From IMG/VR virus record IMGVR_UViG_3300042876_000344: a DNA stretch of 64,000 bases; one strand, given 5' to 3'. Both the position numbers and the translations under genes were made by a program. Positions 7,838 through 32,362 of the stretch are shown here, piece after piece. Source of the DNA: a virus. Below the pieces are notes generated by a model that worked only from the letters and a program-made list of their open reading frames with translations, searched no databases and was not told where the DNA came from. The number at the start of each line of letters is the position of its first letter. The stretch's first letter is position 1.

Positions 7838-7970
7838 ATGTCAACACTACAATCCGAATACCCAGGATGAGGTCTTTGGCTGGCATATCTCATCCGCCAC
7901 AGTTGGAAAAGAGTTGAGACGTCTTGCCGCCCAGTACGAGGCCGGCGAGCGGGAGGTGCCGGGTGAGTAG
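7827..7970 (+). CDS. small hypothetical protein ending in GEREVPGE
   Basis: ATG 7827 overlaps the transposase 3' end. The C-terminus and stop lie in the duplicated 28-bp junction. Confidence 0.35.
   Translation: MRNECQHYNPNTQDEVFGWHISSATVGKELRRLAAQYEAGEREVPGE
7839..7858. repeat. right-hand copy of the 15-bp motif and inverted-repeat partner of 5137-5156
   Basis: ACACTACAATCCGAA at 7844-7858, just after the transposase stop. Confidence 0.65.
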
Positions 7971-7971
7971 T
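7944..7971. repeat. 28-bp gene-junction repeat, copy 1 (GGCGAGCGGGAGGTGCCGGGTGAGTAGT)
   Basis: 27/28 identical to 8158-8185. Contains an RBS (GGGAGG), the GTG start of the next gene and the TAG stop of the previous one. Confidence 0.85.
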
Positions 7972-8184
7972 CCGAATTTCAGGCGGCTACTGGCCGCACA
8001 AATCGAGCCACATCTGATCAGAATCCACGGTTTGCTGGGGAGTGACTACAAGCTGACGCTCATCGCCAGGAACGCAACGATGGAGACCGCCGACGTGATT
8101 CTGACGGCTGACAACCTCGACCTCGCGATTGCGGCGGCGAAGAGGACACGCCAGAACGGCGAGCGGGAGGTACCGGGTGAGTAG
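7963..8184 (+). CDS. hypothetical small protein (GTG start, ends in GEREVPGE)
   Basis: GTG 7963 lies 6 nt after GGGAGG. VSSPNFRRLLAAQIEPHLIRIHG... Confidence 0.5.
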   Translation: MSSPNFRRLLAAQIEPHLIRIHGLLGSDYKLTLIARNATMETADVILTADNLDLAIAAAKRTRQNGEREVPGE

Positions 8185-8185
8185 T
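8158..8185. repeat. 28-bp gene-junction repeat, copy 2
   Basis: GGCGAGCGGGAGGTACCGGGTGAGTAGT. Confidence 0.85.
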
Positions 8186-8947
8186 TTCGAGTCCGAGTTT
8201 TATAGACTACGCGCTACCCTTGTCGACGTGCGGAATGCGGCGATGAGTCAGATTTCGCCGCCAGCGCCGCAGGAGATGGACCGAGAGGCCCTCGTCAATA
8301 TCGCGGAGACGGCCGAGGCAGGCCTCGCTGTGGACGTCCAGGCGCTGCATAAGCATACCGCGATGAGCAAGGCGGCGCAGGAAGATCGACCCTTGGTGCC
8401 AAGCCGAGTGCGCATCTACAGTTATCAGCACGAAGCGTACTGGCGCCCGAATGCGGGTGGCTACACGAGAGAGAAAGAAGAGGCGTGGGTCCTATCGCGA
8501 GCTGAAGCCGAGCGCATAACCAAGCACTGTGGTCCGGAAAAGAGGATCGAGTTAGAACTCGTGCCGAGCAGGTGGAAATCGCGAGCAGAGTTGGAAACTG
8601 AGAATGAGCGGCGCGCGAATGAGGCCCGCAACTGGCAGAGCACCGCAGAGCAGCATTGTCGCAATGAGCAGTATTACCGAGGGATGCTGGCCCAAATTGG
8701 AGAGACCCTCGGGCAGGCGGTCAAAACCTGTGACGACGGAACCACCGTGCCAGATGTTTTGGTGGCCAAGGTGGTGGAGGTCACACTGGCGCGCATCTCG
8801 GGGCTGGAGGCGGAGAACGCCCGGCTGCGGGCGGCGATCTTGGCGGCCCCACACGGGATGCTTTGCCAAGAGTATGCGCACTGGGAGAACGAAAAGTGTG
8901 ACTGCTGGAAGCAGGCCGCGCTGGCCGGGGAGGATTCCAATGGCTGA
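8177..8947 (+). CDS. hypothetical protein (GTG start VSSFESEF...)
   Basis: GTG 8177 sits in the same junction context as 7963. 256 aa with a coiled-coil C-terminal half. Confidence 0.6.
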   Translation: MSSFESEFYRLRATLVDVRNAAMSQISPPAPQEMDREALVNIAETAEAGLAVDVQALHKHTAMSKAAQEDRPLVPSRVRIYSYQHEAYWRPNAGGYTREKEEAWVLSRAEAERITKHCGPEKRIELELVPSRWKSRAELETENERRANEARNWQSTAEQHCRNEQYYRGMLAQIGETLGQAVKTCDDGTTVPDVLVAKVVEVTLARISGLEAENARLRAAILAAPHGMLCQEYAHWENEKCDCWKQAALAGEDSNG

Positions 8948-9284
8948 ATTCTTTACCTCGACCACGGCACTCAAACTCTACGAGGAGCAGATCGCTGTCC
9001 GCGACCGCCACATTGCGGAGTTGGAGGTGGCACTTCTGGGCTTCTACGCCGGCCACCAGGGCGGCAGTGACCCGAAACAGGATGACTGCCAATGCCTGAA
9101 TTGCCGCTCATACCGCGCGTACCGGGCGGGGAATACAATCTTGCTCAACGACATGCTCGCCGGGGCGAAACGGATGGCGCTAGAGGAGGCGGCAAGGCAC
9201 TTCGGCGTTGAGCCAACAGCCTCCTATCAGGGATCGACTGTCGAGGGGTTTCTGCTGAGCAAGGCGCGGGAGCCCCGTCCATGA
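8940..9284 (+). CDS. hypothetical protein
   Basis: ATGGCTGA overlap. MAEFFTSTTALKLYEEQIAVRDRHIAELE... Confidence 0.6.
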   Translation: MAEFFTSTTALKLYEEQIAVRDRHIAELEVALLGFYAGHQGGSDPKQDDCQCLNCRSYRAYRAGNTILLNDMLAGAKRMALEEAARHFGVEPTASYQGSTVEGFLLSKAREPRP

Positions 9285-9649
9285 GCATCCGAGTCGCCTG
9301 CCGCCGCGACCTCCACTACGACTACACCTATCAATGGCGGCCTGGCCTCCACGTGACCGACAGCGGCCCCGCCACCTGCGCCTGGTGCGGCGGCCAGTGG
9401 GCATCCACTCACCGCCTCCAGTACTCGCCCTGCTGCGGCTCTTCGCGCGTGCAGCCGGGCGCCGTGAGCCTGATGCGCCTCTCGCGGCATCCGAAGCTGC
9501 GGCCGATCTTCGGGGATGTCTTCCGGTGGCGGGGGCTGCGCTGTTGTGCGGCCATCGAGGGCGACAGCGTCCTGGTGGACGGCTTCTGGCGCGTTCCGGT
9601 GAAGCTGTGGCTGCGTGAGGCGCGGATAGCACGGAGGGGCGACGTATGA
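9281..9649 (+). CDS. hypothetical Cys-containing protein
   Basis: ATGA coupling at both ends. Confidence 0.55.
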   Translation: MSIRVACRRDLHYDYTYQWRPGLHVTDSGPATCAWCGGQWASTHRLQYSPCCGSSRVQPGAVSLMRLSRHPKLRPIFGDVFRWRGLRCCAAIEGDSVLVDGFWRVPVKLWLREARIARRGDV

Positions 9650-9816
9650 TTGCCATCCGCGCGTTCATGTTGATCGCCGACGATGAGCCGAGCCTGCAGG
9701 ATATTCGGTTCACGCGGGAGGAGATCGAGAACCTCGCTGATGTCGATTGGTGGCTGGCGCACGGTGGCCGGATCGTTGAAGTAGAGATTCGGGAGGTCCG
9801 CGATGGAACCACCTAA
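9646..9816 (+). CDS. small hypothetical protein (56 aa, below the track cutoff)
   Basis: ATG 9646 overlaps the upstream TGA. Hand translation MIAIRAFMLIADDEPSLQDIRFTREEIENLADVDWWLAHGGRIVEVEIREVRDGTT has no internal stops. Confidence 0.45.
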   Translation: MIAIRAFMLIADDEPSLQDIRFTREEIENLADVDWWLAHGGRIVEVEIREVRDGTT

Positions 9817-10072
9817 AGCCGGCGACCAAGTGAGGGTTCGCCGGCGCGTGTTCACTGTCATCTGGGCCGCGGCGAATCACGTGATTTATGTTGTCGACGG
9901 CGGCTACATGGGGCACGTGGTCAGCATGTCAGACTGGCGGAGACTCACTGCTTCGCCCGCATCGGCACCCGGCGACCGTCAGAAAACACCATCCAGTCCC
10001 GGGTCCAAATCCGGCCGTCGTGGTAGACGCCCCGCTCCACCTCAATCCACCAGTCCTGATCGTCCAGCCTAA
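9803..10072 (+). CDS. last small gene of the plus-strand block; only the first ~48 codons look coding
   Basis: MEPPKAGDQVRVRRRVFTVIWAAANHVIYVVDGGYMGHVVSMSDWRRL is protein-like. The tail is S/P/R-rich with low third-position GC and overlaps a better minus-strand ORF. Confidence 0.4.
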   Translation: MEPPKAGDQVRVRRRVFTVIWAAANHVIYVVDGGYMGHVVSMSDWRRLTASPASAPGDRQKTPSSPGSKSGRRGRRPAPPQSTSPDRPA

Positions 10073-10112
10073 CGAACACCTCATCGGCCGTCTCAGTGAT
10101 CGTCCCGTTCAC
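9945..10112 (-). CDS. small hypothetical protein (55 aa, GTG start), last gene of the late operon; absent from the track
   Basis: Hand translation VNGTITETADEVFVRLDDQDWWIEVERGVYHDGRIWTRDWMVFSDGRRVPMRAKQ*. High third-position GC. Starts 10 nt after the upstream stop. Confidence 0.45.
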   Translation of the reverse strand: MNGTITETADEVFVRLDDQDWWIEVERGVYHDGRIWTRDWMVFSDGRRVPMRAKQ

Positions 10113-10121
10113 GACGCGCCC

Positions 10122-10457
10122 CTACCTGACCACGATACTTAGGCCGCTTGGGGCGTCGGTAGGGACCGGTGCGCCGGCCTGATTACTGGGACCTGACTCC
10201 ACGCCGCCGAAGATCGCAGTCACCTGATAACAGTAGGCGCCCGGCTGGACAGTGGTATCGACGTAGGTTTTCACTGCCACCGCGGAAGCAATTTTGGTGA
10301 ACGTCGGGGATGCGCTACAGAGCCCTGAAGCCCGGTAGACGCTGTAAGTGGTGCCGGCGGGGTTGGAGGTATCCGTCCAGGCCAGTGTCGCGCTGTGGGT
10401 GGATGTCTGCGCCAGGGCGGCGACAGCCAAAAACAAAAGGATGATGATGTGTTTCAT
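10122..10457 (-). CDS. secreted fibronectin-type-III-like protein
   Basis: MKHIIILLFLAVAALAQT signal-like N-terminus. ATLAWTD...YSVYRA...YCYQVTA is an FN3-like pattern. Confidence 0.7.
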   Translation of the reverse strand: MKHIIILLFLAVAALAQTSTHSATLAWTDTSNPAGTTYSVYRASGLCSASPTFTKIASAVAVKTYVDTTVQPGAYCYQVTAIFGGVESGPSNQAGAPVPTDAPSGLSIVVR

Positions 10458-10459
10458 GG

Positions 10460-10756
10460 TTATTCCCAATCAGGCAAGTCCACCGTTTGCCCTGCTAATT
10501 CGTGGTGGCAGTCCGACAGGAACTGGATTCGCCCATCAGTGACAAATGAGTGGCAAACGAAATCCGTCCCCTGGTTGCACAGAAGAGACGGGGTGAACGT
10601 CGGACGATCCATTGAGCCATTCCAGGCCCAGCCGCGCTCTTGGCATTCAATCTCAAAAGGGTGCGCATGCCCGCACCCAGGGCAATGGAAGAGATACATC
10701 TTCCCACCGCGCGATCCTCGGTTCGAATCACCTAAATAGTGGAGTTTGTTTGCCAT
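10460..10756 (-). CDS. Zn-binding phage protein, DUF6527-like (from memory)
   Basis: FHCPGCGHAH...WNGSMDRPTFTPSL...CHSFVTDGRIQFLSDCHHELAGQTVDL. Confidence 0.6.
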   Translation of the reverse strand: MANKLHYLGDSNRGSRGGKMYLFHCPGCGHAHPFEIECQERGWAWNGSMDRPTFTPSLLCNQGTDFVCHSFVTDGRIQFLSDCHHELAGQTVDLPDWE

Positions 10757-13700
10757 CTAGTTCACCGTCGCTGTCCCGGACACGCGTGCCGTGCCACACG
10801 TGACTCGGTAGTACACAGTGCCGGCGCTGAGGCCGCTGGCTGAGTAGCTGTGTGCTCGCCCCGCGGCCGAGGAGTTGGGATCCGAAGCATCGTCAGAGGA
10901 TGCCGGCGCGCCGCTGCCAACCAGGACTTTGCAGGCCGCCGGGCTCGGCCCGATCCAACTCAACACTAGAGTTCCCGTTCCAGGGATAGCTCGGAGGTCG
11001 GTGATGCGATCCCGCGGCACGAGGGCATACTCAGGCGCCGTCATGCGCAGATTCAGCCCGCTCAAACTGCCCATTACTCGCTCCCAGGCCCTGCGCCCTG
11101 TCCCGGTACTGGTCGAGTATTCCTCCGCCAGCGCGACCGATGACGCGTAGAGATTCGGGTACGAGTGGCCGTAGCCGACGCCGTTCCACTGGACCCGATC
11201 CCACGTCCATGTTGCGCCCGCCGAATGGCTCGCCGCGGTTGTCCCGTACATTCCGCGCCCGCCAGTGCAGACCGTGAGCGTGGACTGCCCGGCGATGGGT
11301 GAGTCAACGGCGGATGAGCAGATATTGATCCACTCGCTTTCTATCCGCACAATGGTCGGCTCAAACCAGTCAATGCCGATATTGGCGTTGGAGGTACGCT
11401 TGTCAATCACGATGGACGTGGCGCTGTTCGTGATGGTATTCACCAGCGCCGCCGTCCGCGGGAACGTAGAGGCCTGCTCTGCCCACGTCTGCGGAATGAC
11501 ATTGGTTGCCCCAACAACAAACGGAGCGACGTACCAGTCATAGAAATGTGCGTTTGAGTCGGGGTGAATCGCGGAATTGATGAGGTATTTCGAGTATTCC
11601 TCGTGCGTGTAGCGGAACAACGGTTGCCCAGTGGTGGCGTGCAGCCATGCACCGGTCTGCGCCGCCCATCCGATTATGTGGGCGATGTAGTTCAGCATGA
11701 AACTCTGTGTGTAGTTGCCCTCGCTCCAGACCGGCAAGCGCAATGGATTGGACATTCCCTTCATTTGCAGGTGCCTTCCGGAGCACCAGGGCGATACGAC
11801 GGACGTGTAGTGGTAGGAGATGACTACCGTGCTGCCGGCGCCCACTGCCGCCGCTCCGTCGTCCTGGAATACGGTGAATCCACCAGGGTAGTAATACCAG
11901 TCCCTGCCGGTATCCACGCCGCGCACGCCAATCGTCTTTGCCGCTCCGTCAACCGTGATGCCCGTCACCGAATAAAGCGGATGGGCGACACCCAGCACTT
12001 TGGTCGTGCCATTCAGTTTGTAGACAGACCAGCCATTCCAATCATTGGTGCTGCTGGAGGTGTGCGTGACACTATTGCTTCCAAGATCACTCCCACGGCA
12101 GAAATTGGTGGCGGTGGTCACCCCGGCATTCCCGCCGCTGATGCCATACGCGCCCTCCCACATTTCATCGTTTTTCTCTAAAATCCGCCTGAAGTACTCG
12201 CGTTCCGGCCACGCGGAAGGAGCGAGCAGCGCACCGTAGGCGATCTCCCGTAGACTCCATGCCGAACTGCGCCAGTTCCCCCAATCCTGCTTCAATCCCC
12301 AGTCGCCGCATCGCGTGTGGTAGTAGTAGCAGGCGTAATTTGTGCCGCTGGCCATCCACCCAGACAGTGCCATCTGCCCTCGCAAATAGGCGTAGCGCCC
12401 GGTCAGGATGTACGGCATCGCGAATGCGGCGGGCATGTGACTGGTATCGAACACCCAGCCCTTCGTGTAGGCAGCGTCAGCGCCTCTGGCCCCGTCACAA
12501 GGGGTAGCCGTGCAGACCGGGACGACGGCGTCTGCTCCGTCGCTACCCTCGCCGCTCTGCGCCGCCTTCCAGTCAGGCCGCGCCGAAATACTGGCGATGC
12601 GCCCGAATGCGGGCGTCGTCTGCGCGGTGTCGAAGTAATACTTCTGGCCGTCAGCGGGAGAATCGCGCACCGTCGAATTGTCGCTCTCCCATTCCCAGAC
12701 GGGCAGCGTCATCGCGGCGTCTGCGTTGCCCACTAGGAGCTTATCGAAGATCTCTTTTCGCTGCGCGACGGTGAATTGCGAAGTGTCGCCCATGGCAAAA
12801 ATCTGTGTCACATACCAGCGTGGGTGAACACCGATGTCCCCCCTTCCGCCCGTGCCGGGAATGTACTGCTGCCAATTCCCGCAGCGCCCCGCGCCTGGAT
12901 CGCAATCCTGGATGTCGGCCGCCCCTTTGTTTGCGTCGAATTGCGCAACGTCTGTAGCGCCACTCCACTGCTGTGAGTAGCTATAGGGCGGCAGAATGCG
13001 AGAATGCACCATGTAGCGGAGGTTCCAGTCCGTCTGGATTGCAGCGGGCGCGCTGCCATCCCAGAAGTAGCGCGAGAAAGCAGACCGCGCAGGCAGGTCA
13101 AACGCGGTCTTGCTGTACACAGATGCCCCGCTGGTTTTCGTCACCGACAAATCGAACACCTGCCGCTGAAGCCGCGTCGTGGCGCCGTTGATGGCAAGGA
13201 CCTCCACCTCCACGCCAGCCCAGCCCGCGTAGAACGAGGCAACGAAAACAGGATGGACGCTCTTGTAGGTGTCGCTCGACGGCGCCTGCCAACTCCCGCC
13301 GCTGTACTGCCAACCGAAATCATAGAGCGGGTTCGGGCGGGTAACGTCCTCGAACACCGCCTGCGTCACGAAAGGCCCGCGCAGCCTATACGTCCACGCA
13401 CCCGCCGCCAGCATTGTGCGCGCATTTGCAGAATAGGTTATGAAATCAGCCGTGCCCGATAGCACCGCGCCCCAGGCCGCTCCGTTAAAATTGAGCATCT
13501 GCTGCTGAGTCAGTGCGGCGGCCGCGCATGTCGCCAGATTCCCAAGATGACAGGGGTTGCTATCGGGAACGAAATCCACCACTGCTGAACCGTTGGCCGT
13601 GATCGACACGGGGAGGCTGACGAACGCAGCCATCACCGACAGGTCTGGCCAAACGCTCTCAACGTCCACCTGCCAATTGGCGGGGACGCTACCACCCACG

Positions 13701-13864
13701 CGCGGCTTGGGGTAGTAGCCTGATGGGAACTCCCCTTGCGCGAAGTATCTATGGATCGTGCGCGGTTGGCTCGTCTGGGTGCTACCAGAGGCGTCGTAGA
13801 GACGGACGCCATTGTTGAACTGCGCAATCAATGGAAATGCCAGCAAAATCAACAGATATTTCAT
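10757..13864 (-). CDS. large secreted-looking glycan-active or receptor-binding protein with C-terminal FN3 domain
   Basis: ATG 13864 (ATGA coupling) gives MKYLLILLAFPLIAQF. About 1035 aa. C-terminus ITDLRAIPGTGTLVLSW...YYRVTCG is FN3-like. Confidence 0.75.
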   Translation of the reverse strand: MKYLLILLAFPLIAQFNNGVRLYDASGSTQTSQPRTIHRYFAQGEFPSGYYPKPRVGGSVPANWQVDVESVWPDLSVMAAFVSLPVSITANGSAVVDFVPDSNPCHLGNLATCAAAALTQQQMLNFNGAAWGAVLSGTADFITYSANARTMLAAGAWTYRLRGPFVTQAVFEDVTRPNPLYDFGWQYSGGSWQAPSSDTYKSVHPVFVASFYAGWAGVEVEVLAINGATTRLQRQVFDLSVTKTSGASVYSKTAFDLPARSAFSRYFWDGSAPAAIQTDWNLRYMVHSRILPPYSYSQQWSGATDVAQFDANKGAADIQDCDPGAGRCGNWQQYIPGTGGRGDIGVHPRWYVTQIFAMGDTSQFTVAQRKEIFDKLLVGNADAAMTLPVWEWESDNSTVRDSPADGQKYYFDTAQTTPAFGRIASISARPDWKAAQSGEGSDGADAVVPVCTATPCDGARGADAAYTKGWVFDTSHMPAAFAMPYILTGRYAYLRGQMALSGWMASGTNYACYYYHTRCGDWGLKQDWGNWRSSAWSLREIAYGALLAPSAWPEREYFRRILEKNDEMWEGAYGISGGNAGVTTATNFCRGSDLGSNSVTHTSSSTNDWNGWSVYKLNGTTKVLGVAHPLYSVTGITVDGAAKTIGVRGVDTGRDWYYYPGGFTVFQDDGAAAVGAGSTVVISYHYTSVVSPWCSGRHLQMKGMSNPLRLPVWSEGNYTQSFMLNYIAHIIGWAAQTGAWLHATTGQPLFRYTHEEYSKYLINSAIHPDSNAHFYDWYVAPFVVGATNVIPQTWAEQASTFPRTAALVNTITNSATSIVIDKRTSNANIGIDWFEPTIVRIESEWINICSSAVDSPIAGQSTLTVCTGGRGMYGTTAASHSAGATWTWDRVQWNGVGYGHSYPNLYASSVALAEEYSTSTGTGRRAWERVMGSLSGLNLRMTAPEYALVPRDRITDLRAIPGTGTLVLSWIGPSPAACKVLVGSGAPASSDDASDPNSSAAGRAHSYSASGLSAGTVYYRVTCGTARVSGTATVN

Positions 13865-14823
13865 CGGTTCAGCCCCGTCATTTTGAATTTCGCCCAATCT
13901 ACATACAAATTCTTATCCGTTGTGTTGCTAGTGCCGATGATGGCGGCTGGCCCGACCGCGTTGCCCGCTGTAGCAACCAACTGCGTGTTGCTGTCGCAAC
14001 CGCTGGCGCAGATGGTTTTGCTGGTGCCGTCAATCGTGAAGGTGAGTTTGTTGCCGGTGGCTTCGTGCTTGATTGTGAACCGATGCCACGAGAGATCCTG
14101 CCCGACGTTCATCGTCACCGTCGCGCCTCCGGTGTCGCCGCAGTTGTTTTGAGAACCACACCACTGCGCAACCCATGAGCCGGTGGTGTTTTTTGTGTTG
14201 TCTGCGTATGCCGCGTCCTCGTCGTATCGGAGCCAGATGTGAGCCTCTGTGCCATCTCCAGCCACTGTATTTGCACCAGACATACCCAACCGCGCCCGTG
14301 CTCCACTGGTACTCAGTGCGAGCCGCGCGATGTAGGATACGGTCCAATCTTTACCGGTCAAATCCGCGTTGGGGATTTGGTTTCCTGAGTAATTGTTCTT
14401 CAGCGACAGCACCGCTGCGCCGCCAATTGTGGTGTTTGGATAAAGCAACAAAACGCCTGAATGGTTGGAGGGTGGTGACCCGAGCCAGATGAATCCACCA
14501 GAGCCAGCAGTCTCGATCCTCCATCCATGTGTGCCGATGATTCCGCTGTTGTTGTAGCCGGCGATGAAATCCTCAACGATGCAGATCTGCGTAGGGTCGG
14601 ACTGATCGCAGTCCACAGAGGACCCGCCACCCGCCCCAATCTCCGTCTCCGTGCCTGCGGAGGTGAGCGAGTAGAGTTTGTTGTCCGATTTGAAATACAG
14701 TTTGTTCGAGCCGCTGGCCGGGTTTGTAGGCGTAGCGATCTGCAGCATCACCAGGCCGCCGGAGATGATACCAGCCAGCGCCAGAGTGGCAATGCAAAAC
14801 AAAATTGCGAGTGTTCGTTTCAT
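13861..14823 (-). CDS. secreted-looking fibre or lectin-like protein (ConA-like beta-sandwich suspected)
   Basis: AGGAG 5 nt upstream. MKRTLAILFCIATLALAG. Fibre-like N-terminal motif NKLYFKSDNKLYSLTSAGTETEIG. Confidence 0.75.
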   Translation of the reverse strand: MKRTLAILFCIATLALAGIISGGLVMLQIATPTNPASGSNKLYFKSDNKLYSLTSAGTETEIGAGGGSSVDCDQSDPTQICIVEDFIAGYNNSGIIGTHGWRIETAGSGGFIWLGSPPSNHSGVLLLYPNTTIGGAAVLSLKNNYSGNQIPNADLTGKDWTVSYIARLALSTSGARARLGMSGANTVAGDGTEAHIWLRYDEDAAYADNTKNTTGSWVAQWCGSQNNCGDTGGATVTMNVGQDLSWHRFTIKHEATGNKLTFTIDGTSKTICASGCDSNTQLVATAGNAVGPAAIIGTSNTTDKNLYVDWAKFKMTGLNR

Positions 14824-14830
14824 AATTCTC

Positions 14831-16246
14831 CTATCGAACTGTTGCGTTTCCGCTGACGCGGCCAGCGCCGCTGAATGTGGCGGGGGTGGTGTACTGGTAG
14901 GCCCCGATGTCCCAGGGGCCGATGGGCCGAATTACCCCGGATATATCAGTGGTAAACGCGGAGGATAAATCTACGCCTTGGCCACGGGCATATCCGTTAG
15001 ACTTAAGCCTGAAATCGTAGGACGCCGGATCAACGAAAGCGGTTGCCGACCCGTTGACTTGCCCGGTTTCAGCCGAAGGGACGATGCCCGTATTGCCGAA
15101 ATACCCGTTATTTGAAAGCGTAGTACCCACCCCGCCGTTGACCGCCGTAAAATGGCCACTCTCGAAGAGGTTATTTTCCACAATAACGTTGGTAGACCCT
15201 GGGGCATCCATACGTATTTGAGCCAGCACGCCAGGAACAGCGATGCTCCCATAGCCATAAATGGTATTGTTCGCTATTAAAGCATTGGTCATCACCCCAC
15301 TTAACCCACCGCCCGAGCCATCCCGGCTCCAGATGACTCCTGGGCTAATGACGTCGTAGGTTGCAAGGTCCGTGATGTAGAAGATATTGTTGTAAATCAA
15401 AGTATTGGACCACGCACCAGTAGCGCCCAAAAATGAAATGGCTCCGGAGCCTTTGTTGTTTCTGAAGATGCTGTTGCGAATGATCGTATAATTGGACCCG
15501 GTTCCATAGTACATAATGCCTTGTCCGTGCGCCCCGCTTGTGGTCCCGCCAGTTTCGGAGATAACGGAGTTTTCGATCAATGCTCCGTAGTCTGAATAAC
15601 TTGATCCGTTGGCGTCGTCCACCGATAGACCATTTTCACTGGTATCATGTATCCAGCAGTTTGCCAAACGCCATCTGGATGTTCCTGAGAGATGAACGCC
15701 TCGCGAATAACATGCGTAGTTCCCTGAGTCGTTGCAGGTGTCCATGTATCCAGGCCCCTGAATTTCTAGGTGGGATATATCCAGCGAAGCATTTCCCAAA
15801 AAACTCGCATCTATGACGATGACTCTGGCGGATACCGTGGGCTGGTCTGATCGGTAAATCTTGATTCCGTGTCCGCTCATACCCGAACCCGTCACCCCGT
15901 CAATGACAAGATAGGACGTGCTGAGATTTAGAGTCCCATCGATGATCGCCTGCCCTGTCGCATAGGCATCATTCCATCCGGTCTCTGCGCCATGCGCGCC
16001 CGCCGTCGCCTTTTTGATAGTTATCGGCGTCGCCCCACTTGGAGACGTGGATATAGTGACCGTGCCCGCGTATGTCCCGCTGGCGATGTAATAGGTGTCG
16101 CCGCGTACCCATGTCCTGCCAGCAATCGCGGTCCATGCGTTTGTCCAGTCCGATCCGTTGTTTGCGCCCGTCGCTCCCGCGCGGATGTAATGGTCTGCCC
16201 CAAGCGCAAACGAGGATAGGTAGATCAACGCAAGTGCAGGTCTCAT
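14831..16246 (-). CDS. right-handed parallel beta-helix (pectate-lyase-fold) protein, depolymerase or tailspike-like
   Basis: ATG 16246 (ATGA coupling) gives MRPALALIYLSSFALGA. Repeated N/G/I-rich beta-helix coils (NSVISETGG..., IRNSIFRNNKG..., LIYNNIFY..., ANNTIYG..., VENNLF...). Confidence 0.8.
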   Translation of the reverse strand: MRPALALIYLSSFALGADHYIRAGATGANNGSDWTNAWTAIAGRTWVRGDTYYIASGTYAGTVTISTSPSGATPITIKKATAGAHGAETGWNDAYATGQAIIDGTLNLSTSYLVIDGVTGSGMSGHGIKIYRSDQPTVSARVIVIDASFLGNASLDISHLEIQGPGYMDTCNDSGNYACYSRGVHLSGTSRWRLANCWIHDTSENGLSVDDANGSSYSDYGALIENSVISETGGTTSGAHGQGIMYYGTGSNYTIIRNSIFRNNKGSGAISFLGATGAWSNTLIYNNIFYITDLATYDVISPGVIWSRDGSGGGLSGVMTNALIANNTIYGYGSIAVPGVLAQIRMDAPGSTNVIVENNLFESGHFTAVNGGVGTTLSNNGYFGNTGIVPSAETGQVNGSATAFVDPASYDFRLKSNGYARGQGVDLSSAFTTDISGVIRPIGPWDIGAYQYTTPATFSGAGRVSGNATVR

Positions 16247-16920
16247 TTGATCCCCGCGAGCACCGCCGACCAAGGCGATGGCACCGTTGCCGTTTTGTCT
16301 CCGCTAGCGCCGCTGGACACGGGCGCGGTGTACCCGCAGGCAATCCCCTCGTTGGCCCCGCCGTTGATTGTTCCACAGGATGTCCATCCAGCAGGAATAC
16401 CAACGGCCCCGCTTCCATCGGTACTGCCAAAATAGAGCAATATATCTGCTGTTCCGGTGGTTGTGATCGACGTAGCGGTTGCCGTTGTTCCGGTCCCCTT
16501 GTTTACAGTCCCGCAGACATCGGGGGTGGAGGCCGCGCCACTCATCTGCACGATCACGCCAGAGGAGTACTGTGCCCCACCGAACGTAAACGTGTAATTC
16601 CCGCCTTCCGATGAAGCGATCTTGTAGTATGTTGCTACAGATTGCTGGCTGGCTGCTTTCGCGGAACAAACCGACCAGCCAGCGGGGGGCGTCACCGATG
16701 TCGCACTTGAGTTCATCGCTATCCCAGCAAAAAGCATATTCCCGTCTACAATGGAACCCGGTGGGGTTAGAACCAAGGTTGTCGAATTGGCGGAACCAAC
16801 CGGGCTGGAGCTGTTGACGAATGCGGGGCCGCCCGCAGCCGCCCGCCGCCCCACCCGCCGCACCGTCATATCCTGCCCTAGTAGGGTGGGGATAATCGCC
16901 AGAAAAATCAGGAACCTCAC
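16243..16920 (-). CDS. secreted-looking hypothetical protein (GTG start)
   Basis: GTGA coupling. MRFLIFLAIIPTLLGQ. S/T/G-rich beta-type composition. Confidence 0.65.
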   Translation of the reverse strand: MRFLIFLAIIPTLLGQDMTVRRVGRRAAAGGPAFVNSSSPVGSANSTTLVLTPPGSIVDGNMLFAGIAMNSSATSVTPPAGWSVCSAKAASQQSVATYYKIASSEGGNYTFTFGGAQYSSGVIVQMSGAASTPDVCGTVNKGTGTTATATSITTTGTADILLYFGSTDGSGAVGIPAGWTSCGTINGGANEGIACGYTAPVSSGASGDKTATVPSPWSAVLAGIK

Positions 16921-18278
16921 ATTGCCCTCCTCGTTGTAACCTCGACGCCGACCAACGAAACAACGCCAGTGATCGTGTCCGAGGCATGGCCCCTATCTCT
17001 CATGACCTTGAGGTGCATCAGTTCGCCTGCCGCGCATCCGGTCATTGTGATTCCCGTGATGCTGGCCGTGTTGAGTTGCAACGTCGTGCCCTTGGCTGCG
17101 TCGGTAACTGTATTCGCCGTGTTGTACGCTGCGTCGTTGACCTCGGCGTCGGCGCGGCAAGATGTTGCAACCTGCCAAACTACGTCTCCAGTGGTGGCCG
17201 CCGCTTGCCACAGGAATTTCACGTCAACGTTGCCGGCCCAGTCGTCGGGCAGCATGATGATCTGCTGGAGCGAGTAGGTATTGTCGCTGTCCGGGAAATC
17301 AGCAGTCCCCCTCATCATGGTCGTTTCAGTGGACCCCGCCGCGCACGTTGCTGTAGGGGCGTTGGATGCCAGCGTATCCCACATCAGCGTGCCCGTCGTG
17401 CCAGCGCAGCCAGCGGCGGGTAGCCAGATCTTGGAACTGAGCGTGATGACGTTCCCAGTGCCCTCGGCGTCGATGGTCTTGTTGGTGAACGTATCGCTGG
17501 TTGAGGTTGTCACGGCAGCCGTGCAGGACTCAGCCGCGCCGCTCGCATCCACGCCCAACGGGAACGAGCCAGCCGAGCAGTTGGAGCCGTTGGCAGCGAG
17601 CGCCGTGGCTGTCGCCGCGTTGCCCGTCGTGCTCTGATTCAGCGTCGGCACATCCGCAGCCTGAATTGCCGCCGTGGCGGGAATGCCGGTGCTCGGGATG
17701 TGGGTGACAAACTGATTCGCCGTGCGAGTGGCACTCGGAACGACGGTGGTGGATTTCACGCCATTTTCGTTGATCGCATAGAGCGTGAGGCTCGTACTGT
17801 CGAACCACATGCCCATCGTGCTCGCGGCAGGCGTACTCAGCGCCGCGCCCGTCGTGCCCGTGGCGGCAAACTGGCCAGTGCCGGAGGTGGAGAGGACTTT
17901 CTGCCAGCCGGAAGCCGAATCGCAGAACCAGAGGACTTTTGGCGTGGTATCGGTGCGCAACTGCCACTGCTGGCCAGCGGTGCAGGCGCCGGAGGGGTCT
18001 GCGGTCACAGAGGTGACGGCCATGTTGCCGCTACCTGCCGAAGCCTCATCCGCCCAGGTGTTCGTGCCGGTACACAACCGCCCCTTGTGAGTCGTGGTGT
18101 TGTAGTAGCGCATCCCTTCCGTGCAGGTCCCAGGATCGGAGGACTTCTCCGGAACAGGCCGAGAACTGAGAGCCGCGCTCATGTCGATCTTCGTGGCCGC
18201 ATTCGCGGTGTGGCCGTAGGTTTCAGTCTGCGCCCATGCCGCGGACGCCAGAACCAGGAGAGAAATCAGGTATCTCAT
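16917..18278 (-). CDS. secreted-looking fibre-like protein
   Basis: MRYLISLLVLASAAWAQT. Contains a CTEGMRYYNTTTHKGRLCTGTNTW motif like the collagen-like neighbour. T/A/S-rich. Confidence 0.7.
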   Translation of the reverse strand: MRYLISLLVLASAAWAQTETYGHTANAATKIDMSAALSSRPVPEKSSDPGTCTEGMRYYNTTTHKGRLCTGTNTWADEASAGSGNMAVTSVTADPSGACTAGQQWQLRTDTTPKVLWFCDSASGWQKVLSTSGTGQFAATGTTGAALSTPAASTMGMWFDSTSLTLYAINENGVKSTTVVPSATRTANQFVTHIPSTGIPATAAIQAADVPTLNQSTTGNAATATALAANGSNCSAGSFPLGVDASGAAESCTAAVTTSTSDTFTNKTIDAEGTGNVITLSSKIWLPAAGCAGTTGTLMWDTLASNAPTATCAAGSTETTMMRGTADFPDSDNTYSLQQIIMLPDDWAGNVDVKFLWQAAATTGDVVWQVATSCRADAEVNDAAYNTANTVTDAAKGTTLQLNTASITGITMTGCAAGELMHLKVMRDRGHASDTITGVVSLVGVEVTTRRAM

Positions 18279-19516
18279 TAGAATGACCTCACAATCGTGG
18301 CTCGGAACGTTTGGGCGGAAATCGTAGCCGTTCCCGCGATGCGGCAGACCCGCAACGTGACGGTGTTCGCACTGCTGACGTAGGCAGACCAGAGCAGGCC
18401 AGCACCTAGCCCGGTGGGTGCGCCGATCATCACCTCATCGCCGGTTGCCGCGCCGGTGACGGTGATGCTGCCTTCCTCGCAGGAGTTGGTGAATGTGGAC
18501 ATGCTGAGGGAGGCTGTTCCAGTGATCCGCGTTGGCACGATGGCCGGGTCCATCAGGATCAGCGAGCCACTCGGAGGCCCGCCGACGTAGCAGGAGCCCG
18601 TGTACGCGCTGCCCGCCGCCGGGTTGATCGTCACATCGCCGCTGCTGTTCGTGGTGTAGGCCACGCCGCTCGCCCAGACGCCATCTGACGTTCGGCGGCA
18701 GCCTAGGAATACCGGAGTCGTCCCTAGTCCGTGCGTGGCCGCTGTGACCGTCCTGGACGTCTCGCCCGCAAATGCGATCAGGTAGGGCGAGGCGGAGCCC
18801 GTGCCCTCACCCGCAGGTCCAGTCGCTCCGGTAGCACCCGTGGCACCGGTCGCCCCGGCAACTCCCTGGATGCCCTGAGAGCCTGTCGCGCCAGTGGCGC
18901 CGGTTGCGCCTGTCGGGCCAGTCGGCCCCGTGGGCCCAGCCGTTCCAGAGCCGCCGCTGCCGCCGCCGCCCGTGGTGGTCCAGCAGGTGCCCGTCTCGGC
19001 AGGCGAGAATCCCACCGTAACCGAGTTCAGACCGAACACGGGAGCAATCGGCGTGATCTCCGTGTCGTCGCTGGCCCTTCGGCATGTGATCGTGACGGCC
19101 TTGGTATTCCAGTTGTGGGTGACGGTCGCACTGGTAGCGGAGGAGAATGACTGTTCAGCCACTGAGCCAACCGGTCCAGTTGGTCCTGTCGGCCCCGATG
19201 GCCCCGTGCTCCCGGTCGCTCCACTGGGCCCCGTCGGGCCCGTTGGCCCTGCCGGTCCAGTTGCACCCGCGGCTCCGGCTGTTCCTGTTGGTCCTGTCGG
19301 ACCCGTTGGACCGATGCTGCCGGCGCCGGCGGCGACCCAGGTGTCGGGCGGGACGGCGCAGTTATAGAGGCCGGCGCTGGCTCCGGTTTTCTGGAAGAGG
19401 TCGCCAAGGTTGCACTTCGCCGGGAGCGTTCCCCCTTGGGGGGTCACCCGGCGCGCGCCGCCAAATTGGGCCATCAGCGGCAAGGATAAAACCAAAACCG
19501 CCAGAACGTGTTTCAT
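18278..19516 (-). CDS. collagen-like triple-helix-repeat fibre protein with signal-like N-terminus
   Basis: MKHVLAVLVLSLPLMAQ. Two G-x-y tracts (GPTGPTGPTGTAGAAGATGPAGPTGPTGPSG... and GPTGPTGPTGATGATGATGSQGIQG...). Confidence 0.85.
   Translation of the reverse strand: MKHVLAVLVLSLPLMAQFGGARRVTPQGGTLPAKCNLGDLFQKTGASAGLYNCAVPPDTWVAAGAGSIGPTGPTGPTGTAGAAGATGPAGPTGPTGPSGATGSTGPSGPTGPTGPVGSVAEQSFSSATSATVTHNWNTKAVTITCRRASDDTEITPIAPVFGLNSVTVGFSPAETGTCWTTTGGGGSGGSGTAGPTGPTGPTGATGATGATGSQGIQGVAGATGATGATGATGPAGEGTGSASPYLIAFAGETSRTVTAATHGLGTTPVFLGCRRTSDGVWASGVAYTTNSSGDVTINPAAGSAYTGSCYVGGPPSGSLILMDPAIVPTRITGTASLSMSTFTNSCEEGSITVTGAATGDEVMIGAPTGLGAGLLWSAYVSSANTVTLRVCRIAGTATISAQTFRATIVRSF
18803..18946 (-). 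repeat. collagen G-x-y repeat tract 2 (coding)
   Basis: About aa 191-238 of the same protein. Confidence 0.8.
19166..19321 (-). repeat. collagen G-x-y repeat tract 1 (coding)
   Basis: About aa 66-117 of the 18278-19516 protein. Confidence 0.8.
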
Positions 19517-19821
19517 GATGTTCTCCTCGCTGCCGTCTGCTGAACGTGGCCGTCCAGCTTCTTCTCAATTTCGTCGACTCTCTCTGCGATGTTCTCGATC
19601 TTGTCGCCCTGGGCGTCCAACTGGGCGCCGACAGTGGCCGCTCTCATGAATGAGCCGTTTACCCATTCGCGCGTTTCCCTCTGCTGCAGGGCCATCGTGT
19701 CCTTGATTGCGAGTGAGAATTTGGCAAACTCGGCGCGGACTACATACATGACGATCCCTCCGAGAACGCCTGTCCCTGTCACGGTAGCGCCAATGGCTTC
19801 AGCAGTCATAGAAAAATCCAT
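19513..19821 (-). CDS. membrane-anchored coiled-coil protein (lysis-cassette associated; function unknown)
   Basis: TM-like GATVTGTGVLGGIVMYVV followed by a coiled coil. ATGA-coupled to the collagen-like gene. Confidence 0.55.
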   Translation of the reverse strand: MDFSMTAEAIGATVTGTGVLGGIVMYVVRAEFAKFSLAIKDTMALQQRETREWVNGSFMRAATVGAQLDAQGDKIENIAERVDEIEKKLDGHVQQTAARRTS

Positions 19822-19870
19822 TCGTGTGGCTCCAAGTTAATATTTGGGCGGATGACTGCCGCCCGTTATG

Positions 19871-20164
19871 TCACTGCCGCGGCTCAGTCGTAGTCGTCGT
19901 TGACGTTGGCGTGGTGACCGTCGTTGTGGTGACTGCGCCGTCGCCCCATTCGAGGCGGGGCAGTGGAGACTGCTTGACGTAGGTAGCGAAGTGGTAGAGG
20001 CTGGACAACGCCAGCATCTGCAGCATGTGCGGCAACCCCTTCGGGTCGAGGTTGAATTCGCCCGGGGCGATGAGCCATGCGGAGAGCGTGGTGGCGATAC
20101 CTCCGATAAGGGCGCCGACCAACCCATAAATCCAGCCAATCAGCTTTTTCTGGTTGTTTGTCAT
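19871..20164 (-). CDS. holin-like small membrane protein
   Basis: 97 aa. Hydrophobic segments LIGWIYGLVGALIGGIATTLSAWLI and MLQMLALSSLYHF. Thr-rich tail. Lies in the lysis region. Confidence 0.5.
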   Translation of the reverse strand: MTNNQKKLIGWIYGLVGALIGGIATTLSAWLIAPGEFNLDPKGLPHMLQMLALSSLYHFATYVKQSPLPRLEWGDGAVTTTTVTTPTSTTTTTEPRQ

Positions 20165-20173
20165 CGTGTCCTT

Positions 20174-20419
20174 TCAGGTGGGCGGCGCCGTTGCTCTCGC
20201 CGCATTGATCTCCGCGCGGATCTGCGCGCTGATTGCCAGGGCCTCGTCCGACGCCTTGATGGCGTTGTCGTCAATCTCCAGGATGGCAATCGGGAAATCC
20301 GGAGCTTGCTTCTTGATGAGGTTGTAGATCGTGCGCGCGGCCGTCGCTTCAATGGAAATCATCGGGATGCTCTGCCCGATCTGAAACGTCATCTGGAGGA
20401 TTTTGTCGATGGTGCTCAT
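20174..20419 (-). CDS. small hypothetical protein (81 aa)
   Basis: ATG 20419 overlaps the upstream TGA. Only this 3' part of track ORF 20174-20803 is protein-like (MSTIDKILQMTFQIGQSIPMISIE...). Confidence 0.5.
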   Translation of the reverse strand: MSTIDKILQMTFQIGQSIPMISIEATAARTIYNLIKKQAPDFPIAILEIDDNAIKASDEALAISAQIRAEINAARATAPPT

Positions 20420-20826
20420 CGTGCCTCCAGGATCATGGTCAGCGTTGAGGTCACGCCCGCGACCAGCCCCGCAACGGTGGGACTGCTGTACTCGGGGGGG
20501 AGACCCAACGATTTGATAAGCCCTTGGACCGCGGCGATTTTCGTAGTCGGGTCGCCGGAGCGTTGCAGGATGGCGATTGCGGCCTTCTGGGCGGCCGCCA
20601 CGCGGTCGGTCCAGTCCAGGATGCTCAGCACCATGGCATCGCTGATCTGCCCGTCCTTGCGGGCCTGGGCCACGCGCTTGACCGCCGCCAGGTTCACCTC
20701 GGCCAGAATCCCGATTCCCTGGTGGACTCGGAACTCGACGGATTGCGGCGGTGCAGGGGTGCCGGGCGCGGGCTTGTTCCCGCACCCGACAATGAAGAGG
20801 CACAGCGCGACGAGGAGGGTTCGCAT
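20416..20826 (-). CDS. lipoprotein (lipobox LFIVGC), possibly spanin-like
   Basis: MRTLLVALCLFIVGCGNK. Adjacent to the endolysin region. Confidence 0.65.
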   Translation of the reverse strand: MRTLLVALCLFIVGCGNKPAPGTPAPPQSVEFRVHQGIGILAEVNLAAVKRVAQARKDGQISDAMVLSILDWTDRVAAAQKAAIAILQRSGDPTTKIAAVQGLIKSLGLPPEYSSPTVAGLVAGVTSTLTMILEAR

Positions 20827-21506
20827 TACTTCACCACCCTCCAGCCCCAGGCTTCCTTCAGGTGCTTGACTCCCTTGGAGTCGGTGAAGATATCGCCCAC
20901 GGCATAGCCGTCGGGCTGGGTCCTCAGTTCATGCTGCGCGGCGCTGATCCCGGAAACGCGCCCCAAGGGGCCTTCGCCCTCGGGGGTGGGCGCCTGCGTC
21001 GACACGGGGGCGGGGGGTGTGGGCGGGATCTCTGCGGCCGGGACCGGACCGGGGGCGGGGCGGGGAACTTCCAGTTCGTCTATCAGGTCCAGGTCGGACT
21101 CTACCGATACGCCGGCGCCGGCGTGGTAGTAGCGGTCGACGATGCCGGCAGCGTTCAATCGGCGCCCGTTGGGCAGGACCACGGAATAGGTCAGCTTGTC
21201 GGCGTAGTAGATTCCACCTTCGATCCCACGGACAGCCTCAAGGGTGGCGCCGGGAACGAACAATTGGACCAAGCGGAGAGCTTCCTGCGCGCCGGAGGGG
21301 CTCGCGCTCTGTTTCGGGTTGACGTAATGGTTCACTTGCCCGTTCGTCGTGTTGTACACCGCGATGGCGTCAAACAACGCGTAATAGTCTGGGACGAAGG
21401 TGTAATCCGGCTCCGTTCCTTTCGGATGGAAATACGGGTTGTGTGCGGCTGGGCCAGCGTATCCCCAGTCATTGGGGAGGGGTGAGTTTCTGAGGGCGAT
21501 ATTCAT
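20826..21506 (-). CDS. hypothetical protein with Pro-rich linker
   Basis: 226-aa ORF, tightly coupled at both ends. Confidence 0.6.
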   Translation of the reverse strand: MNIALRNSPLPNDWGYAGPAAHNPYFHPKGTEPDYTFVPDYYALFDAIAVYNTTNGQVNHYVNPKQSASPSGAQEALRLVQLFVPGATLEAVRGIEGGIYYADKLTYSVVLPNGRRLNAAGIVDRYYHAGAGVSVESDLDLIDELEVPRPAPGPVPAAEIPPTPPAPVSTQAPTPEGEGPLGRVSGISAAQHELRTQPDGYAVGDIFTDSKGVKHLKEAWGWRVVK

Positions 21507-21985
21507 TCAGGCAATCCTTTCGACTGGGCCCATGCGCGATAATCCGCATCTCTGGGCCACACGAGAGACGGACATTCGGTTGCCCGCACCTGACGGTGCA
21601 GGAGGATTTTCGTAATCGGGTGCCGCGCCATGATCCAGCGGATGACGGCAATCAGGGTTTCATCCTGTTCTTGGGTGAGCCCTTCCTTCTCGCCCTGGGG
21701 CAATGGGCGATAGGCTTCAATTTCAATCCCGATGGAGGAGTGGTTGATGTCGCGGTTGCCAGCATGCCAGGCAGCATCCTTTTCGTCGACGCATTGGATA
21801 ACGGCGCCGCCCCTGGTGATAACGTAGTGCGCGCTGACCTGTGATTTCGCATCCTGGAACCACTTCACCGCGCCCGCTGCCTTGCCAGACGTGTTGTGCA
21901 GCACGATGGCAGAGATCTCTTTTTCGCGCGGCGACCGATTGGGCGACCGCGCGAATGAGATCGCAAAGTGCAGCGCATTATCCAA
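21503..21985 (-). CDS. N-acetylmuramoyl-L-alanine amidase (Amidase_2/PGRP-type endolysin)
   Basis: AIVLHNT...VSAHYVI...AAWHAG...HSSIGIEIE motifs. The start is uncertain: TTG 21985 (GAGG 7 nt upstream, 8-nt overlap) is preferred over ATG 22048 or 22096, which would overlap the upstream gene by 71 nt or more. Confidence 0.8.
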   Translation of the reverse strand: MDNALHFAISFARSPNRSPREKEISAIVLHNTSGKAAGAVKWFQDAKSQVSAHYVITRGGAVIQCVDEKDAAWHAGNRDINHSSIGIEIEAYRPLPQGEKEGLTQEQDETLIAVIRWIMARHPITKILLHRQVRATECPSLVWPRDADYRAWAQSKGLPE

Positions 21986-29627: not shown

Positions 29628-29629
29628 CG

Positions 29630-31384: not shown

Positions 31385-31393
31385 GATGCCTCC

Positions 31394-32359: not shown

Positions 32360-32362
32360 AAT

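Follow-up and report, generated by a model that had tools for sequence, protein, structure and literature searches.

Signal-bearing fibre-like and putative glycan-targeting proteins in the late operon of a tailed phage of soil Acidobacteriota

Introduction

Assembly of tailed phages is described in textbooks as wholly cytoplasmic, and their depolymerases are treated as leaderless parts of the virion. Phages are known to encode proteins with signals, such as spanins, some endolysins and morons, but only one or two in each genome. Here we describe a 64,000-nucleotide (nt) stretch of viral DNA (IMG/VR record IMGVR_UViG_3300042876_000344, hereafter the window), which carries a cluster of seven late genes for fibre-like and putative glycan-targeting proteins with signal-like N-termini at 10122-19516 on the minus strand, referred to as genes 1-7 in the order of their coordinates, and two further genes of this type near the terminase gene. 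The signal features suggest that all nine proteins probably mature outside the cytoplasm. What appears to be new is that phage glycan-targeting proteins would be routed, as a cluster, through the export system of the host; in a full-text literature search, clusters of fibres or spikes with leaders of the Sec (general secretory) type were not found described for tailed phages.

The closest described systems are depolymerases and tailspikes, such as P22 gp9, the K1F endosialidase and those of Klebsiella phages. They are similar to the proteins described here in their beta-helix or enzyme-like bodies, the presence of several per genome, their location in the late operon and their mosaic exchange. 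However, these known proteins are cytoplasmic and have no signal peptide, being either held by an N-terminal anchor or released as surplus soluble protein, whereas here a Sec-type leader is present on every member, Cys counts are high and even, and there is no common anchor. Sec-type leaders do occur on virion proteins of filamentous phages (g3p and g8p), which are assembled at or through the membrane, but the window belongs to a tailed phage, which encodes a terminase and a presumed portal and has a holin-endolysin cassette for lysis. Fibre-like phage proteins are also found outside the virion in the case of PblA and PblB of Streptococcus mitis SM1, tail proteins that serve as surface adhesins in a lysis-dependent manner; these have no signal peptides and are released by holin and lysin, whereas in our case Sec-dependent export would precede lysis. 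Besides, periplasmic or secreted glycanases (AlgL, BcsZ, PslG and PelA) are encoded in bacterial exopolysaccharide (EPS) operons. Homologues of gene 2 are likewise signal-bearing and located within chromosomal EPS clusters, but gene 2 belongs to none of these glycanases by sequence or by confident fold, travels with fibre-like partners and has been acquired by phages. Finally, Gln follows the cleavage site in export signals of Bacteroidetes, a pattern known as the Q-rule and described in a paper that does not mention Acidobacteria (PMC5837995), and prophages of Porphyromonas gingivalis carry five signal-bearing Q-rule genes of unknown function (PMC10367356). In both those prophages and the window, predicted cleavage of the phage signals exposes an N-terminal Gln, and the signals match those used for export by the host; the former are temperate Bacteroidota phages for which no fibre or spike bodies are mentioned, whereas the latter comes from a phage of Acidobacteriota and has nine clustered genes for proteins that resemble fibres, spikes or enzymes.

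Signal-like N-termini of nine late proteins

A preliminary description of this DNA had reported seven consecutive fibre, depolymerase and collagen-like proteins, all with Sec-type signal peptides. The seven open reading frames (ORFs) were found on the minus strand at the coordinates that it gave, and the N-termini that it quoted were exact. They are, however, seven of eight adjacent genes, with a signal-less DUF6527 ORF (10460-10756) in between, and the count of seven was too low: nine proteins in the window have a signal-like N-terminus when those encoded at 43047-44825 and 44825-46759 are included. Signals were called with our own detector, which is a heuristic and not a trained predictor. 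It requires a positively charged start and a hydrophobic core of 9 or more residues without charge, with a lower limit of 1.8-2.0 on mean hydropathy. Over the whole window (~60 genes) it also flagged a lipoprotein, one holin-like protein and the ORF at 49866-50285 (plus strand), and nothing else. Among late-strand ORFs of at least 200 residues, 8 of 28 were signal-like, compared with none of 178 control ORFs of at least 200 residues, which were taken from 30 tail-fibre loci of unrelated phages (p = 4e-8, Fisher test). Together with the lack of any description in the literature searched, this agrees with the earlier view that such signals are unusual for tailed-phage fibres.

In all nine N-termini, K or R is found among residues 1-3 and no acidic residue precedes the hydrophobic core, which is 9-15 residues long (best 10-residue Kyte-Doolittle window 1.9-3.6). 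Position -1 is A or G in every case, and at -3 there is either A or L, the latter being less typical although tolerated. Position +1 is never Cys. Instead, Gln was found at +1 in seven of the nine (p ~5e-9 against a 4% background). The positive start and hydrophobic core described earlier stand, but cleavage most likely takes place before Gln and not after it. The leaders comprise 14-18 residues, which is at the short end for diderm bacteria. Lipoprotein and type IX secretion routes were also considered and rejected: a lipobox is absent from the nine proteins and present only in that encoded at 20416-20826, and no C-terminal sorting domain was detected in Pfam or NCBIfam. The sole type IX-like trace was in gene 4, which matched 'choice-of-anchor Q' below the threshold.

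The flagged ORF at 49866-50285, on the opposite strand near the terminase gene, encodes a protein of 139 residues that begins with a signal-like MTRKWFLGLIGLGAAG followed by QTT and has a hint of a C-terminal CxxC zinc ribbon.

Conservation of leaders and cysteine pattern

In every family examined, full-length homologues retain the leader even though its sequence drifts. Leaders were present in 72 of 90 Met-initiated homologues of gene 2 (the remainder being mostly truncated or called from a downstream start), in 97 of 113 Met-initiated top hits of gene 6, in 12 of 13 homologues of 43047-44825, and in 109 of 144 complete top hits of gene 4, where the leader lies directly ahead of a conserved HYIRAGA motif. 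A survey of homologous phages had been suggested in the preliminary description, and the signals proved to be common to these four families. In gene-6 homologues Gln occupied position +1 in 73 of 97, as assigned by a site picker that favours Gln.

The mature proteins encoded by genes 1-7, 43047-44825 and 44825-46759 contain 2, 14, 6, 3, 4, 10, 8, 10 and 6 Cys residues, respectively (even in eight of nine; density 1.5%). By contrast, signal-less virion proteins of 425, 584 and 321 residues from the same phage lack Cys altogether, and those of 1987 and 439 residues contain a single Cys each. An even Cys count was also found in 94 of 97 gene-6 homologues, a statistic that is inflated because the members have a four-Cys domain in common and are not independent. 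Such even, high Cys counts would fit export, and two cultured phages that infect one host strain, Tunturi 1 and Tunturi 3, differ in a similar manner (see below).

Considering the anatomy of the N-termini, their drift-tolerant conservation, the cysteines, the detached leader in the structural model of gene 2 and the leaders of cellular homologues (both discussed below), we conclude that the hydrophobic N-termini are very likely genuine signals for Sec and signal peptidase I, as first proposed, that they would be adapted to an acidobacterial host of Bryobacteraceae type, and that the proteins are very likely exported.

Genes 1-5, exported cellular homologues and host lineage

Gene 2 (10757-13864, minus strand) encodes a protein of 1035 residues with the signal MKYLLILLAFPLIA followed by QF and 14 Cys. 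Its AlphaFold2 model is a confident monomer, with a predicted local distance difference test score (pLDDT) of 90.7 and a predicted template modelling score of 0.92, and shows beta-sandwiches at the N-terminus, followed by a large domain of helices and, at the C-terminus, an FN3-like domain. Residues 1-13 have pLDDT <50, and the leader forms a detached low-confidence helix. The protein therefore looks like a globular, multidomain carbohydrate-active enzyme, and the label of fibre does not suit it. The best PDB matches found by Foldseek were partial, to PL26 rhamnogalacturonan lyase (5xq3, 5xqo) and GH38 mannosidases; the PL26 match is weak (E = 3e-4, template modelling score 0.13-0.15 over ~290 columns). 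Sequence searches of PDB with the gene-2 and gene-6 family profiles and three single proteins returned nothing useful. We found 94 homologues of gene 2, nearly all with a signal, and the named ones belonged to Bryobacteraceae or Acidobacteriota.

Gene 3 (13861-14823, minus strand; 320 residues, 6 Cys) has a long hydrophobic N-terminus (MKRTLAILFCIATLALAG...), which may be a signal peptide or a signal-anchor. Its homologues are located directly upstream of gene-2 homologues in L008 and in the chromosomal loci L047, L049, L054 and L055, and phage as well as cellular cassettes pair gene 3 with gene 2. Gene 4 (14831-16246, minus strand; 471 residues, 3 Cys) has the signal MRPALALIYLSSFALGA followed by DHYIRAGA and a right-handed beta-helix (Pfam Beta_helix, E = 2.5e-10). 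It can be assigned by sequence to a widespread family of bacterial exported right-handed beta-helix proteins, with 2705 representative clusters at E <= 1e-3, and the alignments of its top hits extend from query residues 1-22 to ~450-470. Since the beta-helix begins right after the cleavage site, there is no room for a virion anchor. The match of genes 2, 3 and 4 to exported cellular families suggests that they encode exported proteins of bacterial type, carried by the phage as cargo.

The remaining two genes of this group are smaller. Gene 1 (10122-10457, minus strand) encodes 111 residues with the signal MKHIIILLFLAVAALA followed by QT, 2 Cys and a small beta-rich, perhaps FN3-like, domain (weak phrog_33719 match). 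Gene 5 (16243-16920, minus strand) encodes 225 residues with the signal MRFLIFLAIIPTLLG followed by QD, a Ser/Thr/Gly-rich body and 4 Cys (phrog_6813, E = 1e-8). The DUF6527/phrog_3362 ORF wedged between genes 1 and 2 on the same strand, which was missed by the Logan gene table, encodes a small Cys-rich protein of 98 residues without a signal (Pfam E = 1.9e-13, PHROG E = 3.9e-34). Searches of PHROGs, Pfam and NCBIfam gave nothing useful for genes 1, 2, 3 and 5 or for most tail proteins.

The organism names attached to homologues, which come from metagenome-assembled genomes, were all acidobacterial, namely Bryobacteraceae (three times), Acidobacteriota or Acidobacteria, and Candidatus Acidiferrales. 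Signals of exported cellular proteins on acidobacterial contigs also end in A or G before Q. Together these observations bear out the idea that the AQ-type signal ends are a clue to host lineage; it points to Acidobacteriota and not to Bacteroidota, and within that phylum the host is to be placed near Bryobacteraceae. The pattern of Gln after the cleavage site may also serve as a cheap host-lineage marker for uncultured phages.

Gene-2 homologues were found on contigs of 288-441 kb, the chromosomal stretches of which have a guanine-plus-cytosine content of 63-67%, compared with 54-65% (2-kb steps) in the window. We identified four chromosomal loci of two syntenic types (A: L047 and L054; B: L049 and L055) with gene-2 homologues at 37-60% identity. 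At ~7300-13100 of each locus is a cassette for a signal-bearing protein of 470-543 residues, a gene-3-like protein of 332-344 residues and a gene-2-like protein of 1018-1037 residues, the gene for the last of which comes after the other two. The first of these is fibre-like and contains domains common to genes 6 and 7. The cellular gene-2 homologues have equally short leaders of 15-16 residues. Genes for EPS biosynthesis surround the cassettes (glycosyltransferases, UDP-glucose dehydrogenase, polysaccharide deacetylase and a Wzx-type flippase), and no phage gene was called within 10 kb of the four cassettes.

Fibre- and spike-like members

Four members resemble genuine fibres or spikes, namely genes 6 and 7 and the two genes near the terminase. 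Gene 6 (16917-18278, minus strand) encodes 453 residues with the signal MRYLISLLVLASAAWA followed by QT and 10 Cys. Its structural model consists of Cys-hairpin repeats, a low-confidence stalk with the fibre motif TFTNKTID and a C-terminal jelly-roll head. Foldseek matched this head to carbohydrate-binding modules (CBM11/6/22) and the ephrin-receptor ligand-binding domain in PDB, and in BFVD to the head domains of phage fibres and of collagen-repeat proteins from viruses. The gene-6 family comprises at least 597 proteins. Gene 7 (18278-19516, minus strand) encodes 412 residues with the signal MKHVLAVLVLSLPLMA followed by QF, two collagen-like G-x-y tracts (Pfam Collagen, E = 1.6e-12), via which it aligns with PHROG tail-fibre families, and 8 Cys. 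Thus, the bodies predicted at the outset to be receptor-binding or glycan-degrading modules were confirmed in part: the beta-helix in gene 4, collagen in gene 7, a CBM-like jelly-roll in gene 6 and an FN3-like domain in gene 2.

A motif, P-x2-C-x2-G-x(10-20)-C-x(3-6)-W, recurs in gene 6 (residues 40-130) and gene 7 (residues 30-65). It forms small beta-hairpin units in the gene-6 model, is also present in the cellular cassette proteins and has no Pfam match.

The two terminase-proximal genes, both on the minus strand, stand between the terminase and the presumed portal gene. The first (43047-44825) encodes a spike-like protein of 592 residues with a 14-residue signal, MKKLLILLPLLLPA followed by QQVDY, a pectate-lyase-like beta-helix (PF12708, E = 1.7e-8) and 10 Cys. 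Its family has 13 homologues, 12 of which have both a signal and a conserved mature N-terminal module of ~55 residues; one homologue (P0228) has only this module in common with it and a different body, and a relative of the window phage (L058) carries two tandem paralogues. The second (44825-46759) encodes a fibre-like protein of 644 residues with the signal MVRWLLVVVFCFGLAA followed by QT, 6 Cys and PHROG hits to tail and tail-fibre families, and is kept along with its signal in two relatives (L005 and L058). When the nine proteins were compared, no docking domain common to all was found.

Occurrence in other phages

Similar clusters were observed in other phages. Seven signal-bearing fibre-like genes surround a Phage_stabilise gene in a 96-kb phage (L042), six follow one another behind lipoprotein and membrane genes in a 63.5-kb phage (L045), and L011 has three; relatives of the window phage also have clusters. 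In addition, the three-gene arrangement of the chromosomal cassettes, with its gene 3-gene 2 pair, ends the late operon of an unrelated, temperate, integrated siphovirus prophage, after the lysis genes. The occurrence of this pair in podovirus-like as well as siphovirus genomes shows it to be portable cargo and not part of one tail type.

The feature is also present in a cultured podovirus, Tunturi 1 (PP887698), whose host is Tunturiibacter. Five consecutive signal-bearing proteins (gp12, 13, 14, 16 and 17; 10371-23028) are encoded in a stretch bordered by a tail protein gene on one side and lysis genes on the other, and ~12.6 kb of its structural operon is given to such genes. Their leaders end in AQ or NA, and the mature proteins contain 20, 10, 20, 1 and 32 Cys, respectively. 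The annotation of two of them, 'tail spike' and 'virion structural protein', comes solely from structure-based prediction; the paper on the Tunturi phages names Phold for functional categories and mentions neither signal peptides nor 'mass spectrometry' or 'structural proteins'. Infection by Tunturi 1 is lytic, and no integrase or recombinase is annotated. No homology was detectable between the window proteins and Tunturi 1, suggesting that the common feature was not inherited via these proteins. Tail fibres of Tunturi 3, which infects the same host strain (7573-29886), are signal-less and have 0-7 Cys, and tail proteins of Tunturi 4 (15159-21285) are leaderless and cysteine-poor. The idea that all acidobacterial phages need exported fibres was therefore rejected, and the feature is a strategy of some phages and not a requirement of the host.

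Free enzymes, exported fibres and other explanations

The explanation that we favour, with moderate confidence, is that these are Sec-exported, disulfide-bonded proteins directed against the EPS or capsule of the host, and that most of them are free enzymes. The nine proteins would be translated from the late operon late in infection, seven of them from directly behind the lysis genes. They would then cross the inner membrane unfolded via Sec, be cut after A or G at position -1, in most cases exposing an N-terminal Gln, and fold in the oxidising periplasm with formation of disulfide bonds. Mature proteins would bind or cut glycans, with host exopolysaccharide or capsule as the target. As for individual roles, gene 4 and 43047-44825 may act as beta-helix proteins, gene 2 as an enzyme-like protein, gene 6 as a fibre with a CBM-like head, gene 7 as a collagen-like rod, and genes 1 and 5 as small beta-domain proteins. 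Free proteins could act on the polymer from the periplasm, and lysis would subsequently release them to clear matrix and receptors around the burst. In this scheme, the features of the signals and their conservation, the Cys pattern, the relationships of the families and the genomic contexts are observed, whereas export, the site of cleavage, disulfide bonding, EPS as the substrate and a free rather than virion-bound state are inferred.

The organization of the cluster points to late lytic expression. It is one compact chain with the lysis genes upstream, and stop and start codons overlap by 4 nt at 13861-13864, 16243-16246, 16917-16920 and, with a holin-like gene, 19513-19516, and by 1 nt at 18278. 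Promoter-like and terminator-like sites in 9500-22500 were not above the shuffled expectation in a consensus scan that is crude for the host phylum. Thus, overlapping codons tie the genes to holin genes, and no promoter or terminator signals of their own were found.

Of the possibilities raised in the preliminary description, enzymes that strip EPS or capsule gain most from our analysis, with genes 2-4 belonging to exported families and relatives of genes 2 and 3 located in EPS loci. The free-enzyme explanation appears best supported for these three genes on account of their exported cellular homologues, the EPS-locus context, the lack of an anchor and the portability between tail types, and it probably holds for genes 1 and 5. 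In the case of genes 6 and 7 and of the two terminase-proximal genes, exported virion fibres fit about as well as free proteins.

Several observations weigh against free enzymes or against export itself. The seven genes lie roughly in the tail-fibre slot of T7-like podoviruses, after a giant internal protein and beside a holin. The fibre motif of gene 6 is common to ordinary signal-less tail fibres and its head is like those of viral fibres, while gene 7 is collagen-like. The swapped bodies, conserved N-terminal module and tandem paralogues of 43047-44825 are the classic pattern of a virion spike. No signal-less receptor-binding protein was identified in the window, where the tail proteins at 28350-34279 match nothing. 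Besides, the leaders are unusually short and were called by a heuristic, such that a trained predictor may give a borderline result; to these points should be added the inflated Cys statistic of gene 6 and the weak fold match of gene 2.

The main alternative, which we consider possible but somewhat unlikely, is that some or all of the proteins are real receptor-binding fibres or spikes that mature in the periplasm and dock onto particles which are otherwise complete, and do so only once the inner membrane has been opened by the holin or the cell has lysed. Its likeliest members are 43047-44825, 44825-46759 and genes 6 and 7, which would still undergo cleavage, disulfide formation and conversion of the N-terminal Gln to pyroglutamate. 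The collagen tracts, the motifs TFTNKTID and IKNKP, the pectate-lyase beta-helix and the viral fibre-head fold all agree with this alternative, as do the 55-residue N-terminal module with exchanged bodies and the tandem paralogues between terminase and presumed portal. The same is true of the tight packing of the genes with holin genes, the lack of any other receptor-binding candidate in the window and the large share of such genes in the structural operon of Tunturi 1. Docking at a late stage has a parallel in P22, whose tailspikes attach to tailless heads in vitro. In contrast, no precedent among tailed phages was found in the literature search, the nine proteins have no docking domain in common, and genes 2, 3 and 4 have exported cellular homologues and no anchor region. 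The gene 3-gene 2 pair occurs with two different tail types, gene 1 (111 residues) and gene 5 (225 residues) are too small for fibres, and the signal-less tail proteins of Tunturi 3 and 4 argue that the host does not demand this route. An extension of this alternative, in which a group of tailed phages including the window phage and Tunturi 1 exports fibres or spikes via Sec, so that particles would become infectious only after the holin opens and assembly would proceed in two compartments, is slightly more doubtful still.

The sequence data do not separate free enzymes from exported virion fibres, but since Tunturi 1 and its host are in culture, either outcome is directly testable. In both cases a large share of late genes would be built for the extracytoplasmic space (the signal-bearing proteins total ~12 kb of a 66-kb genome), in a design also found in a cultured isolate and in soil phages that are unrelated. 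In the case of free enzymes, acidobacterial phages would secrete an anti-EPS toolkit partly in common with EPS loci of their hosts, which would be relevant to biofilm turnover in soil and as a source of glycanases stabilised by disulfides. In the case of virion parts, assembly of phages would have a periplasmic branch that is not described for Caudoviricetes.

It is improbable that the cluster serves lysogenic conversion or exclusion, that is, that the genes are morons at the end of the late operon which are expressed from the prophage and remodel or mask surface polysaccharide or block superinfection. A distal location in the late operon after the lysis genes is a common moron position, and it is shared by the arrangement in the integrated siphovirus prophage, near the integrase region of the latter. 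The window also has a tyrosine-recombinase-family gene (63028-63888), and the cellular homologues are found in EPS loci. The Q-rule proteins of P. gingivalis prophages were suggested by the authors to be possible outer-membrane modifiers (PMC10367356). However, no separate promoter or terminator signals were detected for the genes, which are tied to holins by overlapping codons, Tunturi 1 shows the same feature with a lytic infection and no annotated integrase or recombinase, two signal-bearing genes are conserved in the structural module between terminase and presumed portal, and nine large genes (~12 kb) would be much for conversion cargo. Conversion, one of the explanations offered initially, is thus weakened as a general explanation.

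It is very unlikely that the N-termini are not export signals but belong to cytoplasmic tail fibres, as buried docking peptides, as elements for a membrane-proximal assembly site or as products of wrong start assignment. In favour of this view, the leaders are indeed very short, at 14-18 residues, and fairly similar to one another (M-K/R-x-L-L-I-L-L...), TTG starts lie upstream in two ORFs and gene calls of homologues sometimes start downstream. However, a docking peptide would leave unexplained the Gln at +1 (7/9), the small residues at -1 and the drift that retains hydrophobicity, the Cys counts suit export, cellular homologues in non-phage loci bear the same leaders, the gene-2 model shows a disordered leader apart from the fold, and the start choices are backed by 4-nt overlaps and independent gene calls.

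Genome organization and additional observations

The window represents most of a 65.8-kb metagenomic contig (Logan SRR24010765), and a 66.3-kb JGI contig encodes the same proteins. Late genes are on the minus strand, from ~51.6 kb down to ~9.9 kb, in the order large terminase, a 187-residue protein, 44825-46759, 43047-44825, presumed portal, scaffold-like and capsid-like genes, four tail-sized proteins, a 1987-residue protein, the lysis cassette and the seven-gene cluster. The large terminase subunit (47320-49305, minus strand; PHROG terminase hits) was used as a landmark. Its identity to INPHARED phages is <31%, and the phage has no close cultured relative. A tblastn search against cultured phages gave only these distant terminase matches and nothing for gene 6 or 44825-46759, and scans of GTDB genomes with the terminase and with the ISL3 transposase turned up no relative. 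The portal (39346-41598, minus strand; 750 residues), scaffold-like and capsid-like genes are presumed from position and size, none having a family match, and the four tail-sized proteins (28350-34279, minus strand) also lack one.

The lysis cassette begins with an N-acetylmuramoyl-L-alanine amidase (21503-21985, minus strand), which is the endolysin and has no signal peptide (PHROG amidase/endolysin, E ~1e-19; Pfam Amidase_2). It is followed on the same strand by a predicted lipoprotein of 136 residues (20416-20826), with the lipobox-containing MRTLLVALCLFIVG before Cys and no family match, which may be a spanin component, and by two holin-like membrane proteins. One of these (19871-20164) has 97 residues, and the other (19513-19821, 102 residues), whose gene has the 4-nt overlap with the start of gene 7, contains a hydrophobic segment and has no family match.

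The giant late protein of 1987 residues with a single Cys (22379-28342, minus strand) was classified as polyvalent by family searches. It contains a 2'-5' RNA ligase-like domain (617-740), LPD38 (1703-1877) and a phrog_21 region. A genome scan with this protein found a truncated relative only, and a 3574-residue analogue with the same ligase domain is encoded by the unrelated 96-kb phage L042. The early region has an ISL3-family transposase gene (Zn_ribbon_ISL3, DDE_Tnp_ISL3; 6515-7837, plus strand), close copies of which were not found in a GTDB genome scan. The tyrosine-recombinase-family gene (63028-63888) is on the plus strand and would be compatible with a temperate lifestyle. Also on the plus strand are a gene of PrimPol-VapE primase/helicase type (55865-57856) and a DUF5131 gene (3353-4363).

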